From: Escherichia phage FL33
Sequence record: PP400788
Strand: one strand, 5' to 3'
Length of the DNA: 64,000 nt
The number at the start of each line of letters is the position of its first letter. Position 1 is the stretch's first letter. The notes below the pieces were generated by a model that searched no databases, was not told the origin of the DNA, and saw nothing but the letters and a program-made list of their open reading frames with translations. Of this stretch, positions 10,076 to 16,899 are shown piece by piece. The position numbers and the translations under genes were made by a program.

Positions 10076-11245
10076 TTAAAAGTATTTTTTAAAACTCATC
10101 ATAACTTTATCATCAACATCATTATCAATCTGTGCAACAAGGTAAGATGACAGTTCTACTTCTTGTGGCGCGGATTGAACATTATCAGAATTAAGATATT
10201 CACGAATCCAAGGATATGGATGTTTAACCGGAGCATCGGTAATTGGGCATGGAAGACCACACTGTTTCATACGAGATACAGTTAAGTAATCAATAAAGCT
10301 CCACATGCTATTTGTATTTAATCCAGGAACATCACCATCTTTAAATAAATGAACTGCCCAATCTTTTTCTTGGCGGTTAACTTCCATGAAAATATCAACT
10401 GCTTCTTGTTCACACTCTTGAGCAATTTTAACCCATTCATCGCCATCAGTGCCAAGTTGAAGTTGACGAATAATATATTGGGTGCCTTTAAGGTGAAGCT
10501 GCTCATCACGAGCAATGAACTTCATAATCTTGGCATTACCTTCCATGATTTCCATGTTTTTGTGGAAGTTAAATGTACACGCGAAAGATACGTAAAAACG
10601 AATAGCTTCCAGGGCGTTGATTACATGAAGGCAAAGATAAAGAGATTTCATTAGTGCTCGTTTAGTACATTCAACAACTTTGCCTAACTCTTCTTTACGA
10701 AATCCTTCTGATAAAATTCCTTCATAATCTTCAACCGCATTCTGATATTCACGAGTCTTAACTAGAACATCATCGTAATAGCGACCAATGGACTCGGCAC
10801 GTTTCATAATAGCTTTATCTAATACAATCTCATCAAATACCTTTGACGGATCAGTATAAAGATTTCGCATAATATGAGTGTATGAACGACTGTGAATAGT
10901 TTCACTAAAAGTCCATGTAGCAACCCATGTATCAAGACTTGGGTCTGAAATTAACGACATAAGTACAGCAGACGGCGCACGACCCTGAATGCTATCCAAA
11001 AGTGATTGATACTTCAAGTTATTAGTAAAAATATCTTGCTGATATTGAGGAAGCTTGTTAAATTGTGCAGCATCCATCATCAAGTTTACTTCTTCAGGAC
11101 GCCAGAAAAATGACAACTGCTTTTCGGTTAAATCTTCAAAAACTTTATGACGTTGAATATCATAACGCGCAATACCAAGACCTGAACCGAAGAACATAGG
11201 TTCTTTTAAAACATCAACTGGATTTGTATTAAAAACTGTGCTCAT
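10076..11245 (-). CDS. nrdB: ribonucleotide reductase small subunit (class Ia beta), uninterrupted
   Basis: 389-aa ORF with di-iron/tyrosyl-radical motifs (EAIRFYVSF, ARDEQLHL); no intron. Confidence 0.9.
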   Translation of the reverse strand: MSTVFNTNPVDVLKEPMFFGSGLGIARYDIQRHKVFEDLTEKQLSFFWRPEEVNLMMDAAQFNKLPQYQQDIFTNNLKYQSLLDSIQGRAPSAVLMSLISDPSLDTWVATWTFSETIHSRSYTHIMRNLYTDPSKVFDEIVLDKAIMKRAESIGRYYDDVLVKTREYQNAVEDYEGILSEGFRKEELGKVVECTKRALMKSLYLCLHVINALEAIRFYVSFACTFNFHKNMEIMEGNAKIMKFIARDEQLHLKGTQYIIRQLQLGTDGDEWVKIAQECEQEAVDIFMEVNRQEKDWAVHLFKDGDVPGLNTNSMWSFIDYLTVSRMKQCGLPCPITDAPVKHPYPWIREYLNSDNVQSAPQEVELSSYLVAQIDNDVDDKVMMSFKKYF

Positions 11246-11296
11246 AAATTTTCCGCTTAGTTAATAGATAGTGACTCGTCCGTGAGTCAAATTATA

Positions 11297-12286
11297 TCAT
11301 AATTTACAGGATGAACAATCTTCAGCTTTTGGAGTTTCTATTTCATAATCATCAGTACCAGAACCATCACGGGTATTATGATAATAGAAATTTTTTCCGC
11401 CAAAATACCAAAAATACAAAAGGTCATCAATCATTACAGACATTGGAACCTTTCCTTTTGGAAAAATCTGCGGGTCATAATATGTATTCGCTGAAGCTGA
11501 TTGACATACCCATTTCAGCATAATAGCTACCTGCGTAAGATAAGGTTTATTACCTTTCTTAGCTAATTTCCATGTATAATCATAGAGGTCTATGTTATGT
11601 TCAATATTGGGCACGACTTGATTAAAGGAACCCTCTTTTGATTCTTTAACCGAGACTGGTCCACGTGGAGGCTCGATACCATTTGTACTGTTAGAAACTT
11701 GGGAAGATGACTCACATGGCATAAGTGCTGATAATGTGCTATTACGGATGCCAAAGAGCTTAAGGTCTTCCCGCAGCGACGACCAGTCACAAACGTATTT
11801 TGGAGCTGCGATTTGGTCAATCTTTTTATTGTACCAGTCGATAGGTAATTCGCCTCGAGACCAACGAGTGTCTGAATAATATTCGCAAGGTCCTTTTTCT
11901 TTGGCGAGCTTAATGGATGCTTTGATGAGTCCATACTGTAATCTCTCAAATAGTTCATGTGTTAAATCGTTAGCATCTTCATAAGAAGCAAAGTTACTTG
12001 CCAGCCAAGCTGCATAGTTAGTAACACCTACACCAAGATTTCGACGCTTTTTAGCTTTTTCTGCTTCAGGAACTGGATATCCTTGGTAATCCAAAAGATT
12101 ATCAAGAGCACGAACTTGAACTTCTGCTAATTCATTAATTTTATCTTGGTCTTGCCAATCGAAGTTATCTAATACGAATGCGCTAAGGGTACAAAGCCCC
12201 ACTTCTCCCTTGTTTTCAATAACTTCTATTGTAGTATACTCATCATCTTCGTAAAATTCATCTACAAATTCATAATCAATATTCAT
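11297..12286 (-). CDS. nrdA: ribonucleotide reductase large subunit, C-terminal piece (nrdA-b)
   Basis: 329-aa ORF; after about 23 acidic non-RNR residues it aligns with the C-terminal part of class Ia NrdA (GEVGLCTLSAF, NSTLSALMPCESSSQ, C-terminal CSSCKL redox tail); ATG overlaps end of HNH ORF. Confidence 0.8.
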   Translation of the reverse strand: MNIDYEFVDEFYEDDEYTTIEVIENKGEVGLCTLSAFVLDNFDWQDQDKINELAEVQVRALDNLLDYQGYPVPEAEKAKKRRNLGVGVTNYAAWLASNFASYEDANDLTHELFERLQYGLIKASIKLAKEKGPCEYYSDTRWSRGELPIDWYNKKIDQIAAPKYVCDWSSLREDLKLFGIRNSTLSALMPCESSSQVSNSTNGIEPPRGPVSVKESKEGSFNQVVPNIEHNIDLYDYTWKLAKKGNKPYLTQVAIMLKWVCQSASANTYYDPQIFPKGKVPMSVMIDDLLYFWYFGGKNFYYHNTRDGSGTDDYEIETPKAEDCSSCKL

Positions 12287-12986
12287 TTAATTCTTCTACC
12301 TTTTTTCTAGTAATTCCTAAAGCTTTAGATGCTCGATGTATTGATTGATATTCTATACCGTTTATTTTTACAGCAATTAAGTTATGGGGTTTTAATCCCT
12401 TTGGATGAGGTTTACTGACGAAAACTAAATTATCAAGCTCTGAAATCTTATCCAATTTCTTACACTTAAATCCTTTGTGATGCGACCGTTTACCTTTACA
12501 AACGGCTGACATAGTAGACGGATTTAAATTATGCTCTTTACAAAATTCGTTAAGACCTCGATGAATTTCCTCATGACCATCCGGAAATGTAAACACCCAA
12601 GATGTTTGAAGTCGAGATTTAACTTCTGGAGACATAGGAATACCTTTGTTCCAAGCTGGTTTGCCTTTATTATTTTCAGATACAGAAATAGCCAATTTTC
12701 TTCTAAGCCACCCATGACGTTTATTGGTGTTCTTTCGTTCAATATTATCTTCAGAATAAACACACATCATATTAGCAGCAAATATCAATTTATGATTATC
12801 TGGATATATCTTTACTAATAATTGATGAGCTATGTAATGCTCTTCTGGTGTCAAATCTACCAGGTTTTCCTTTGTATCAGAACCACCAATACACAGAGGT
12901 ATAATATGGTGTGATTCGGTATAGCAATCTAATTTTCTGTTCTTAGCTTTAGAAATAAGGTTATTGTAAATTTTAGAATAATCCAT
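12276..12986 (-). CDS. HNH homing endonuclease (free-standing, MobE/I-HmuI-like) inserted in nrdA
   Basis: 236-aa ORF with own SD (AAGAGGAAAAGTT-ATG); HNH core ESHHIIPLCIGGSDTKENLVDLTPEEHYIAH; NUMOD-like GKPAWNKGIPMSPE; C-terminal helix-turn-helix-like INGIEYQSIHRASKALGI. Confidence 0.8.
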   Translation of the reverse strand: MDYSKIYNNLISKAKNRKLDCYTESHHIIPLCIGGSDTKENLVDLTPEEHYIAHQLLVKIYPDNHKLIFAANMMCVYSEDNIERKNTNKRHGWLRRKLAISVSENNKGKPAWNKGIPMSPEVKSRLQTSWVFTFPDGHEEIHRGLNEFCKEHNLNPSTMSAVCKGKRSHHKGFKCKKLDKISELDNLVFVSKPHPKGLKPHNLIAVKINGIEYQSIHRASKALGITRKKVEELNEY

Positions 12987-13031
12987 AACTTTTCCTCTTG
13001 TTATGGATTATTTATTAACGGTCTGTGTACT

Positions 13032-14465
13032 TTATTTGCTTTGAATTATACCGCCAGGATTAGCTTCATAAAACTTAGCTACATCCGACTTCTTAATTTT
13101 GATTAAACGGGTTTGTTGGCTATTCACATCATTTGTTGGAATAGCAATTTCACAGCACAAGTTACTCTGACGAATAGGTGCCTTTTCACGAATAAACGGA
13201 GTATAGTTATTCGTATTATCAATGAACTGCACATAAATCCTTGCTGTTCCTGAGCGTTCAGTCATGAGTAATTCAAATAGTTCACGGGCTTTAATACGCT
13301 TTTTACGAATATTAGGGTCTTTTTCTGCGGCTTCGTACAATTCACGGAAACGGTCTTGGTCTTTAAAATAAGAATAATAAAGCTCGCCACCCATTTCATG
13401 CGGACTGAACAAAGTAATGTAGTCGTTCTTTCCAAAACGTTCCATCATCAAATCATTCAGCTGGACGCCATAATCCATATGACGGATACGGTTTTCTTCT
13501 ACGCCTTTGTTATTTTTCAAAACGAGAAGATTTTCAACTTCCAAATGCCAAATAGGATAATAAGCAGTAGCAGCGCCGCCACGAATTCCGCCCTGTGAAC
13601 ATGATTTAACAGCAGTCTGAAAATGTTTCCAAAAAGGAATAACACCAGTATGACGCACTTCACCTGTGCCAATCTTAGAACCTTCGGCACGAATCATACC
13701 AACGTTAATACCAATTCCAGCGCGTTTGGAGATATATTCAACAATTGAAGCAGAAGCCTTATTGATAGACTTCAGCGAATCACCTGCTTCAATAACAACG
13801 CATGAACTAAATTGCCGAGTCGGAGTACGACAACCAGCCATAATAGGAGTTGGCAATGAAATCTGTCGAGTAGATACTGCTTCATAAAAACGAATAACAT
13901 GTTTTAATCTGTCAACAGGTTCATCTTGATGCAATGCCATTCCAATAGTCATAAATGCAAACTGTGGAGTTTCATAAATTTGACCAGTGGTTTTATCTTT
14001 AACGAGATATTTTTCTTTTAATTGCATCGCCCCGGAATAAGTAAATTCCATATCCCGCTCGTGCTTAATTTTTGATTCTAAAAATGTAATTTCTTCTGCA
14101 GAATATTTTGACAACAATTCAGGGTCATATTTACCTTCATTTACACAGTAAGAAATATGGTCAATAAATGAACGTGGTTCATACTGACCGTAAACATGCT
14201 TACGAAGAGCAAACATTAAACAGCGTGCAGCTACATATTGATAATCAGGCTCTTCAACTGAAATAGAATTCGCAGCAGCCTTAATTACAATGGTTTGAAT
14301 GTCATCAGTGGTCATTCCATCACGGAGATATGATTTAATATTTTCATATAATTCATAAGGATCTACAGATGTTCCTTCAGCTGCCCAAGATAAAACTTTA
14401 ATAATTTTTTGCGGGTCAAAGCTTTGAGAAACACCACTACTTTTGATAACATTAATTAATTGCAT
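13032..14465 (-). CDS. nrdA: ribonucleotide reductase large subunit, N-terminal piece (nrdA-a)
   Basis: 477-aa ORF; class Ia NrdA N-terminal region through active-site loop SNLCCEIAIPTNDVN, then about 29 non-RNR residues and stop. Confidence 0.8.
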   Translation of the reverse strand: MQLINVIKSSGVSQSFDPQKIIKVLSWAAEGTSVDPYELYENIKSYLRDGMTTDDIQTIVIKAAANSISVEEPDYQYVAARCLMFALRKHVYGQYEPRSFIDHISYCVNEGKYDPELLSKYSAEEITFLESKIKHERDMEFTYSGAMQLKEKYLVKDKTTGQIYETPQFAFMTIGMALHQDEPVDRLKHVIRFYEAVSTRQISLPTPIMAGCRTPTRQFSSCVVIEAGDSLKSINKASASIVEYISKRAGIGINVGMIRAEGSKIGTGEVRHTGVIPFWKHFQTAVKSCSQGGIRGGAATAYYPIWHLEVENLLVLKNNKGVEENRIRHMDYGVQLNDLMMERFGKNDYITLFSPHEMGGELYYSYFKDQDRFRELYEAAEKDPNIRKKRIKARELFELLMTERSGTARIYVQFIDNTNNYTPFIREKAPIRQSNLCCEIAIPTNDVNSQQTRLIKIKKSDVAKFYEANPGGIIQSK

Positions 14466-15022: not shown

Positions 15023-15334
15023 TTACACCGCCATTTTTCCTTTCAAGACGCCGTGGGACTGATAATCTTTGAGAACGAAATCTTTAGGCCTGAGTTTAAG
15101 AATGTATTCCAATTGTTCTTTAGTAGAAAGATAGCGGAATTTATAAGGCAATCCGCCTATTACCAGTTCACAAAGCTCTTTAGGTTCACGACGCAAAATT
15201 TCTTTACATTGTTCTACGTGATTCATATAGATATGAGTATTACCACCGGAAAATATCAAATCTCCCGGAATAAGATTACACATCTTAGCTACAATATGAA
15301 CTAACGTAGCATATGATGCAATATTAAATGGAAG
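15023..15334 (-). CDS. td: thymidylate synthase, exon 2
   Basis: Encodes C-terminal 103 aa (LPFNIASYATLVHIVAKMCNL...); 3' splice site after intron terminal G at 15335. Confidence 0.9.
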   Translation of the reverse strand, partial: LPFNIASYATLVHIVAKMCNLIPGDLIFSGGNTHIYMNHVEQCKEILRREPKELCELVIGGLPYKFRYLSTKEQLEYILKLRPKDFVLKDYQSHGVLKGKMAV

Positions 15335-16350
15335 CATTATGTTCAGATAAGGTCGTTAATCTTACCCCGGAATTATATCCAGCTGCATGTCACCATGCAG
15401 ATCAGACTATATCTCCAACTTGTTAAAGCAAGTTGTCTATCGTTTCGAGTCACTTGACCCTACTCCCCAAAGGGATAGTCGTTAGGCATTTATGTAGAAC
15501 CAATTCCATTTATCAGATTTTACACGATAAGTAACTAATCCAGACGAAATTTTAAAATGTCTAGCTGCATCTGCTGCACAATCAAAAATAACCCCATCAC
15601 ATGAAATCTTTTTAATATTACTAGGCTTTTTACCTTTCATCTTTTCTGATATTTTAGATTTAGTTATGTCTGAATGCTTATGATTAAAGAATGAATTATT
15701 TTCACCTGAACGATTTCTGCATTTACTACAAGTATAAGCAGAAGTTTGTATGCGAACACCGCACTTACAAAACTTATGGGTTTCTGGATTCCAACGCCCG
15801 TTTTTACTTCCGGGTTTACTGTAAAGAGCTTTCCGACCATCAGGTCCAAGTTTAAGCATCTTAGCTTTAACAGTTTCAGAACGTTTCTTAATAATTTCTT
15901 CTTTTAATGGATGCGTAGAACATGTATCACCAAACGTTGCATCAGCAATATTGTATCCATTAATTTTAGAATTAAGCTCTTTAATCCAAAAATTTTCTCG
16001 TTCAATAATCAAATCTTTCTCATATGGAATTTCTTCCAAAATAGAACATTCAAACACATTACCATGTTTGTTAAAAGACCTCTGAAGCTTTATAGAAGAA
16101 TGGCATCCTTTTTCTAAATCTTTAAAATGCCTCTTCCATCTCTTTTCAAAATCTTTAGCACTTCCTACATATACTTTATTGTTTAAAGTATTTTTAATCT
16201 GATAAATTCCGCTTTTCATAAATACCTCTTTAAATATAGAAGTATTTATTAAAGGGCAGTCCTACAATTTAGCACGGGATTGTCTACTAGAGAGGTTCCC
16301 CGTTTAGATAGATTACAAGTATAAGTCACCTTATACTCAGGCCTCAATTA
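15335..16350 (-). mobile_element. td group I self-splicing intron (1016 nt) carrying I-TevI
   Basis: Intron 5' end reads UAAUUGAGGCCUGAGUAUAAGGUGACUUAUACUUGUAAUCUAUCUAAACGGGGAACCUCUCUAGUAGACAAUCCCGUGCUAAAUUGUAGGACU on the minus strand, matching the remembered T4 td intron; exon 1 ends GGU; intron ends AAUG. Confidence 0.9.
15482..16219 (-). CDS. I-TevI: I-TevI GIY-YIG homing endonuclease (intron-encoded)
   Basis: 245-aa ORF MKSGIYQIKNTLNNKVYVGSAKDFEKRWKRHFKDLEKG... with GIY-YIG motif and C-terminal zinc finger/DNA-binding region. Confidence 0.92.
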   Translation of the reverse strand: MKSGIYQIKNTLNNKVYVGSAKDFEKRWKRHFKDLEKGCHSSIKLQRSFNKHGNVFECSILEEIPYEKDLIIERENFWIKELNSKINGYNIADATFGDTCSTHPLKEEIIKKRSETVKAKMLKLGPDGRKALYSKPGSKNGRWNPETHKFCKCGVRIQTSAYTCSKCRNRSGENNSFFNHKHSDITKSKISEKMKGKKPSNIKKISCDGVIFDCAADAARHFKISSGLVTYRVKSDKWNWFYINA

Positions 16351-16899
16351 ACCCAAGAAAACATCTACTGATCGTTGATACCACTGCAAATCCAAATAGC
16401 CATTACGCACATTAAACTGATAGAACATATGACAAGGCGGTAATGCCATCTGCTTGAGTTCAGCTGGATTCCATGCTGAAACAATTTGACGCCTATCATT
16501 TGGCAATTTTTTAATACGATCAATAACTTCTATAATTTGGTCTACACCACCAAAATCACGCCACTGTTTTCCATAAATTGGACCAAGTTCACCGCTATGG
16601 TATCCTAAATCTTTTGCTTGATTTTCGTAATTTTCATCCCAAACTGTTTTGCCTTGGATTAACGAATCATGTTGAATTAATCGCAAATCATTTACGTTAG
16701 TACTTCCTGACAAAAACCATATTAGCTCAGCAATACAAGCTTTCCAGGCGAGCTTCTTAGTCGTTACTGCAGGAAAACCTTTAGTTAAATCCCAGCGTAA
16801 TTTAGTACCGAACAAAGCAATTGTTCCTGTGCCTGTTCGGTCATCGGTTTCATAGCCATTTTCAAAAATGTCTTTAATTAAATCTTGGTATTGTTTCAT
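16351..16899 (-). CDS. td: thymidylate synthase, exon 1
   Basis: 183 aa; TS motifs (TKKLAWKACIAELIWFLSG, PPCHMFYQF active-site Cys); reading frame hits an in-frame stop at the first intron codon. Confidence 0.9.

Follow-up and report, generated by a model that had tools for sequence, protein, structure and literature searches.

Introduction

The closest described relative of the locus analysed here is the split nrdA gene of Aeromonas phage Aeh1, in which the endonuclease gene mobE separates a ribonucleotide reductase (RNR) gene into nrdA-a and nrdA-b (Friedrich 2007; Gibb & Edgell 2007, 2009; Crona 2011). The two Aeh1 products are separate, unprocessed polypeptides that form an active holoenzyme, and deletion of their tails lowers the activity approximately 2000-fold; these tails had no database matches as of 2011 (PMC3045599). 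The Aeh1 split RNR was still cited as a single instance in 2023 (PMC10448857), and a 2022 preprint refers, on unpublished data, to Aeh1 'and several others' with MobE within nrdA and with conserved terminal extensions (10.1101/2022.08.31.505936). In this study, we analysed a stretch of 64,000 nucleotides (nt) from Escherichia phage FL33 (record PP400788; hereafter, the window), in which nrdA is split in the same loop by a gene for a homologous HNH homing endonuclease. We consider it very likely that a mobE-type mobile cassette like that of Aeh1 homed into this loop and that nrdA now specifies two separate NrdA polypeptides.

Three further systems are relevant for comparison. T4 mobE belongs to the same endonuclease family and lies in the same operon as the HNH gene of the window, but it encodes 141 amino acids (aa), is located between genes and splits nothing. 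In the T4 mobA/gene 39-gene 60 system (Bonocora 2011; 10.1101/2022.08.31.505936), a Mob-family HNH endonuclease splits the gene of an essential enzyme and brings C- and N-terminal extensions with it. Both this cassette and that of the window are mobile and carry their own remedy, but the mobA cassette targets topoisomerase II, its tails are unrelated, and its 50-nt translational bypass has no counterpart in the window. The fractured genes described by Dassa 2009 (PMC2677866) include nrdA genes broken near the thiyl-radical Cys, with a free-standing endonuclease, an upstream hairpin and a downstream overlap, as here. The products of those genes are rejoined by trans-splicing split inteins, whereas the split nrdA of the window lacks intein motifs and its halves would stay separate.

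Results

nrdA is split between two catalytic cysteines

All of the window features described in this work are on the minus strand. The upstream part of the gene, nrdA-a (13032-14465, 477 aa), encodes the ATP-cone, the all-alpha domain and the first half of the RNR barrel, including the catalytic residues C222, N435, C437 and E439. Its stop codon is followed by a 45-nt spacer (12987-13031; 98-100% identical among the five coliphage copies compared) and by the mobE-like HNH gene (12276-12986, 236 aa). The downstream part, nrdA-b (11297-12286, 329 aa), starts at an ATG 11 nt inside the HNH open reading frame (ORF) and encodes the second half of the barrel, with C32, Y301-Y302, C324 and C327; the overlap ranges from 1 to 20 nt across all lineages. 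A spacer of 51 nt (11246-11296), empty where T4 has mobE, separates nrdA-b from nrdB (10076-11245).

Pfam assigned the ATP-cone, Ribonuc_red_lgN and barrel positions 1-221 to NrdA-a, and barrel positions 219-523 to NrdA-b. Residues 22-323 of NrdA-b aligned with residues 452-751 of E. coli NrdA. The break thus falls between the equivalents of C439 and C462 (C437 in NrdA-a and C32 in NrdA-b), and the same loop is interrupted in all ten lineages compared. Uninterrupted alleles (PP01, T4 and JS98) carry NDVNSPDAEIGLCTLSAF across the break point; nrdA is one ORF of 754 aa in T4 and PP01, and one intact coding sequence in JS98. The window nrdA is, net, exactly 904 nt longer than the intact T4/PP01 gene. 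The coordinates, the two spacers and the overlap given in an original prediction for this locus were all borne out by the ORF list, and the T4 comparison agreed with its account of T4 nrdA as a single 754-aa ORF with mobE in the nrdA-nrdB spacer.

The extensions are homologous to those of Aeh1 and evolve as protein sequence

The dimensions of the window locus (477 aa, 45-nt spacer, 236 aa, 11-nt overlap, 329 aa) closely follow those of Aeh1 (473 aa, 46 nt, 237 aa, 14 nt and 323 aa; L004), and the likeness extends to a basic tail on the first polypeptide and an acidic head on the second. The NrdA-a tail (13032-13121) comprises S449-K477 and the stop codon, is unique from Q450 onwards (13118), has a net charge of +4 and contains the core LIKIKKSDVAKF. 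The NrdA-b head (12218-12286) is 23 aa long, has a net charge of -9 and contains the core YEFVDEFYEDDEYTTIEV. The tail QQTRLIKIKKSDVAKF is homologous to KEKMLFKVKKSEVDKF of Aeh1, with a score reached by 1 of 20,000 composition-preserving shuffles; the head IDYEFVDEFYEDDEYTTIEV is homologous to IEHERIYEVYEDEEYTTVEI of Aeh1, with a score reached by none of 20,000. The distal part of the tail is unrelated to that of Aeh1. A match between head residues 19-47 and Dhakavirus was considered and discarded, as it is merely the native loop TDVNSPDAEIGLC and is uninformative on the origin of the cassette.

Conservation of the extensions was compared with that of the enzyme across the ten lineages. Mean pairwise identity was 0.62 in the tail core (consensus L.KIKKSDV..F) and 0.70 in the head core (consensus YE.V.E.YED.EYTT), compared to 0.65-0.66 in the NrdA core, 0.54 in the HNH protein and 0.21 in the distal tail. 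Charge was maintained in every lineage (+4 to +7 in the tails and -5 to -10 in the heads). Divergence at codon positions 1, 2 and 3 was 0.30, 0.14 and 0.54 in the tail core and 0.25, 0.08 and 0.44 in the head core, that is, highest at the third position and lowest at the second, and 182 and 207 synonymous codon differences were counted in the tail and head cores respectively. By this substitution pattern, the tail and the head are translated and selected protein sequence, in frame with the RNR halves.

The HNH protein belongs to the MobE family

The HNH protein was 46% identical to Aeh1 MobE over 227 aa, that is, over its full length (E 3e-58), and shared 45% identity with the truncated T4 MobE over its N-terminal 130 aa. 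H26, H27, N41, H50 and H54 are invariant between the HNH protein and Aeh1 MobE. Pfam detected an I-HmuI NUMOD-like domain (36.7 bits against a cut-off of 27, E 3e-9), and the HNH match itself was under the cut-off (18.2 vs. 21.4). The ratio of nonsynonymous to synonymous substitution rates (dN/dS) of the HNH gene was 0.06-0.19, indicating selection on the endonuclease. In a set of 50,697 phage records, the closest full-length relatives of Aeh1 MobE were these coliphage genes (45-48% identity), and the relationship was reciprocal; the next group of MobE relatives (approximately 31%) lies beside helicase genes. The original prediction had drawn the parallel with Aeh1 at the level of the arrangement, which is indeed the same; the homologies of the endonuclease and of both extensions go further, and point to the same mobile cassette, tails included, and not to a mere analogous event.

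Transfer of the whole cassette between diverged nrdA genes

Escherichia phage FL34 (PP400789), which is T4-like and came from pig faeces, was 100% identical to the window over the queried 3.4 kb. The same insertion was found in 34 phage records, corresponding to approximately 27 distinct genomes once RefSeq/GenBank pairs were merged and to approximately 3.6% of all records with a match to this part of nrdA. The carriers are Tequatrovirus, one Mosigvirus (AV111) and genus-unclassified phages, isolated on Escherichia, Shigella, Yersinia and Salmonella. All 34 records bearing the head also have the HNH gene, and none of them is a split allele devoid of the endonuclease.

Six coliphage copies were examined in detail. 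Between the window and PTE-Eco05, the nrdA flanks were only 77-80% identical, while the tail, the spacer, the HNH gene and the head were 99-100% identical, with sharp edges at approximately 13130 and 12200. Synonymous divergence (dS) was 1.4-1.8 in the nrdA flanks vs. 0.036 in the HNH gene. A near-identical cassette between diverged flanks demonstrates recent transfer as one unit between diverged nrdA genes. The dN/dS of the nrdA halves was 0.005-0.12.

The cassette was also found outside the isolate genomes. A search of 5.8 billion proteins returned full-length HNH homologues whose identity is graded from 82% down to 45%. The order nrdA-a, HNH gene, nrdA-b was present in all eight metagenomic contigs examined, with nrdB next wherever the contig reaches. 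Three of these contigs were compared with isolate genomes: L092 is from a Klebsiella T4-like phage and, as far as the junction, is 99.5% identical to isolates whose nrdA is intact; the closest isolates to L091 are Erwinia phages (approximately 80%), and those to L095 are Makalu-type coliphages (approximately 74%). A scan of IMG/VR with a MobE alignment returned Aeh1 itself as the sole split case; most of the MobE relatives in that scan follow an intact nrdA, which is the position of mobE in T4.

The junctions carry a probable co-conversion or site-immunity signature

Next, the boundaries were compared codon by codon with the intact alleles. At the left junction, the window matches PP01 through AAT AG (13120), and the Ser that follows NDVN is common to the intact alleles. 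At the right junction, donor-type ENKGEV codons (12217-12200) stand in place of the native PDAEI, and they are followed by ten codons, GLCTLSAFVL (12199-12170), with eight synonymous differences from PP01. The point of return to host-type sequence varies among the endonuclease-carrying alleles. Varying switch points together with clustered synonymous changes are the pattern expected of co-conversion or of selection for an uncuttable site, and the 12170-12217 tract probably represents either co-conversion around the homing site or an immunised target site that the endonuclease would be unable to cut. The original prediction had placed the break directly after NDVN and described a simple insertion before ENKGEV. 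The net gain of 904 nt stands, but the Ser after NDVN is native, which shortens the unique tail to 28 aa (from 13118), and five native codons (PDAEI) were replaced as well.

Expression signals at the HNH start

The start of the HNH gene is surrounded by a perfect 13-bp hairpin (12977-13012), whose loop contains the Shine-Dalgarno sequence AAGAGGAAAA and whose 3' arm includes the HNH AUG. Its folding energy (-13.8 kcal/mol, z -4.9) was matched by none of 200 shuffles, and the AUG is paired in nine of the ten lineages. In the six lineages with the same layout, to which the covariation analysis was restricted, 98.7% of the cells were paired and 3 of the 13 pairs were compensatory; none of 500 shuffles reached the covariation score. 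The start region of nrdA-b is unstructured by folding. In Aeh1 there is also a hairpin at the endonuclease translation start, near a late-promoter-like box, but it pairs the Shine-Dalgarno sequence, whereas the window hairpin pairs the AUG.

The window box, AATAAATA (13009-13016), overlaps the 5' arm of the hairpin and would function as a late promoter. The exact T4 late box, TATAAATA, from which AATAAATA departs at one position, is absent upstream of the HNH gene in the window, where only AATAAATA was found; it is present at the equivalent place in three metagenomic contigs (L091, L093 and L097), where it overlaps or abuts the 5' arm. By analogy with I-TevI and Aeh1 mobE (PMC2988022), late transcription initiated within the 5' arm would release the HNH start codon.

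Related and neighbouring elements

The central segment of the HNH gene (12420-12650, approximately residues 112-189), which is NUMOD-like, exists in two variants that are approximately 70% identical, as revealed by the mismatch profile of the coliphage copies. One variant is present in FL34, PTE-Eco05 and 236Ecol, and the other in AV111, IME537 and F2, the cassettes being otherwise near-identical (L006, L007, L008). Such a pattern suggests that the endonuclease gene has recombined internally, and a DNA-binding module may have been exchanged.

In many Tevenvirinae, the next-closest full-length MobE relatives (approximately 30-34% identity) adjoin helicase (uvsW) genes or overlap with them (records H44-H46 and H137-H160), and some of these uvsW-adjacent relatives are labelled 'group I intron endonuclease'. 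The uvsW-type helicase gene may be a further target of the MobE family.

The spacer between nrdA-b and nrdB carries an additional ORF in two phages (L008 3604-4335/L009 3648-4439): in IME537 it encodes 243 aa and is labelled as a second homing endonuclease in RefSeq, and in 236Ecol005PP it is labelled as a DNA adenine methylase. Elsewhere in the window (15023-16899), the td gene has a T4-like interruption, with exon ORFs at 16348-16899 and 15023-15337 and an I-TevI-like GIY-YIG ORF at 15482-16219.

Three metagenomic contigs show other interruptions of nrdA in the same region. Contig L093 (707-4287) has an in-frame intein (NL|CLSGDS...VHN|CLEI) in addition to the mobE cassette, that is, two mobile elements in one active-site loop. 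In L027 (1-2498, IMG/VR), a split intein (CVTGDTRV.../...NILVHN|CEI) breaks nrdA at the catalytic Cys, with a free-standing HNH gene of 322 aa between the parts; this is a Dassa-type layout, but the endonuclease is HNH and not GIY-YIG or Vsr-like. In L030 (3-2441, IMG/VR), the break in nrdA falls in the same loop as in the window, but the intervening ORF (241 aa) is GIY-YIG-like and the extensions are unrelated. The NrdA-a tail of L030 resembles the intein block B region (4 of 20,000 shuffles; Pfam Intein_splicing E 0.016), and this resemblance suggests a decayed split intein. The same idea was tried for the window and Aeh1 tails and was rejected, since shuffles against the L027 split intein gave p values of approximately 0.15-0.9 and there was no Pfam intein match.

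Discussion

Three other explanations of the locus were weighed against a split gene with two separate products. The HNH gene might lie within a group I intron, in which case a spliced nrdA mRNA would yield a single NrdA protein. T-even phages have introns of this sort in td, nrdB and nrdD, the td intron with its I-TevI gene is located only 2.5 kb away in the window, and a direct junction of NDVNS with ENKGEVGLC would read as a plausible E. coli-like loop. The Rfam scan (RF00028) found no group I intron at E <= 10, but this is uninformative, as the td intron in the same stretch was missed at that threshold too; RF00028 is therefore a poor detector of ORF-bearing phage introns. The principal argument against an intron is the coding signature of the tail and the head: the sequences flanking the HNH gene are in frame with the exons in all ten lineages, change as coding sequence does and are conserved at the protein level about as well as the NrdA core. 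Moreover, nrdA-b has its own ATG in every lineage, only approximately 130 nt plus 60 nt of non-HNH sequence is left for an intron core, and the homologous Aeh1 tails were found intact on separate polypeptides by mass spectrometry (PMC3045599). We regard an intron as very improbable, and the preference of the original prediction for a free-standing endonuclease gains support from the full-length MobE homology and from the coding pattern of the extensions. A split or degenerate intein, with both halves joined by protein trans-splicing, is more improbable still. Such an element would have precedents, as nrdA fractures with a split intein plus an endonuclease exist a few codons upstream (L027; Dassa 2009), the tail of L030, which is split at this very loop, resembles an intein fragment, and Crona et al. 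suggested an intein remnant as a possible origin (PMC3045599). However, the 28 and 23 residues available here (51 aa combined) are far below the size of a HINT fold, and they lack blocks A, B, F and G, the context of a Cys/Ser/Thr nucleophile and a terminal HN. No Pfam intein match was obtained at E <= 10, while the L027 control scored 8e-16. In L093, a genuine intein occupies the catalytic Cys and the cassette lies 10 codons downstream, which indicates that they are separate elements, and the Aeh1 tails are not processed (PMC3045599).

The remaining explanation is that the split killed nrdA, that the ORFs are decaying remnants and that the phage relies on the host or on an anaerobic RNR. We consider this unlikely, although less so than splicing at either level. 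T4 nrdA is auxiliary and needed only in nrd-defective hosts (Miller 2003, quoted in PMC5931544), and some annotations omit both halves, as in the HY01 record (GenBank KF925357). By contrast, neither half is disrupted in any of the 34 phage records or in the eight metagenomic contigs examined (the contig end truncates one half in each of L094 and L097), all catalytic residues are kept, and the low dN/dS of the halves indicates selection on them. Conservation of the tails at about the level of the enzyme core is sensible only if reassembly matters, and the Aeh1 enzyme is fully active (PMC3045599).

The explanation we prefer is therefore an Aeh1 mobE-like mobile cassette and two NrdA polypeptides. 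This cassette comprises a segment coding for the basic tail, then a stop codon, the HNH gene with its putative regulation, and a segment that codes for the acidic head and has its own start codon; it would have homed between the Cys439 and Cys462 equivalents. NrdA-a (approximately 54 kDa) and NrdA-b (approximately 38 kDa) would be produced as separate products and, by homology with Aeh1, would combine with NrdB into an active (aa/ab)2-b2 reductase. The oppositely charged tails would be needed for dimerisation as a dimer of heterodimers, for NrdB binding and for formation of the holoenzyme. The start-codon hairpin presumably silences the endonuclease on early and middle transcripts, so that it would be expressed late. 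The endonuclease would then cut the intact nrdA of co-infecting phages, probably near the GLCTLSAF codons, and repair of the cut allele would copy the whole cassette, including the tails.

Several points weigh against this interpretation. The late-promoter box of the window carries one mismatch. T4 can do without nrdA in ordinary hosts, and the split enzyme is therefore not certain to be active. Part of the low dN/dS stems from divergence older than the insertion.

The arrangement as such is of a kind already known from Aeh1 (2007-2011; Friedrich 2007, Crona 2011). As the original prediction had allowed, it is already found in annotated phage genomes; its occurrence in 34 such records makes it real, and not novel as an arrangement. 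The genome papers on cassette-carrying phages do not mention the split. The split may lead to annotation errors: the HY01 record annotates neither half, as noted above, and the paper on UFV13, a T4-like coliphage whose cassette status was not checked, lists nrdA as absent (PMC5931544).

The coliphage case differs from Aeh1 in several respects. The carriers are Tequatrovirus and Mosigvirus, compared to Cinqassovirus for Aeh1, and the window locus lies in a T4-type td-nrdA-nrdB block, while the nrdAB genes of Aeh1 are elsewhere in the genome. Many coliphage copies in divergent backgrounds are available here, which reveals recent mobility. What this work adds is evidence for joint transfer of the tails and the endonuclease, and an E. 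coli system.

The known workings of such elements are not changed by the window locus. Across the 34 records and the eight metagenomic relatives, the tails are conserved as a component of a mobile cassette that jumps as one unit. We lean towards a broader interpretation, with less confidence than for the window itself, in which the endonuclease and the two tail segments form one self-contained gene-splitting cassette which homing has disseminated, always at this loop, among at least five or six T4-like groups (counting Tequatrovirus, Mosigvirus, Aeh1 and the metagenomic carriers whose nearest relatives are Klebsiella, Erwinia and Makalu-type phages). The tail cores, of approximately 12-18 residues, would then be a portable, charge-complementary reassembly module, constrained more than the endonuclease. 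As the cassette is present in coliphages that grow on E. coli K-12, the function of the tails, target recognition and the frequency of homing are testable by T4 genetics. If this interpretation is true, the tails would be an evolved and transferable antidote to the split, and not random DNA that was fixed once in Aeh1.

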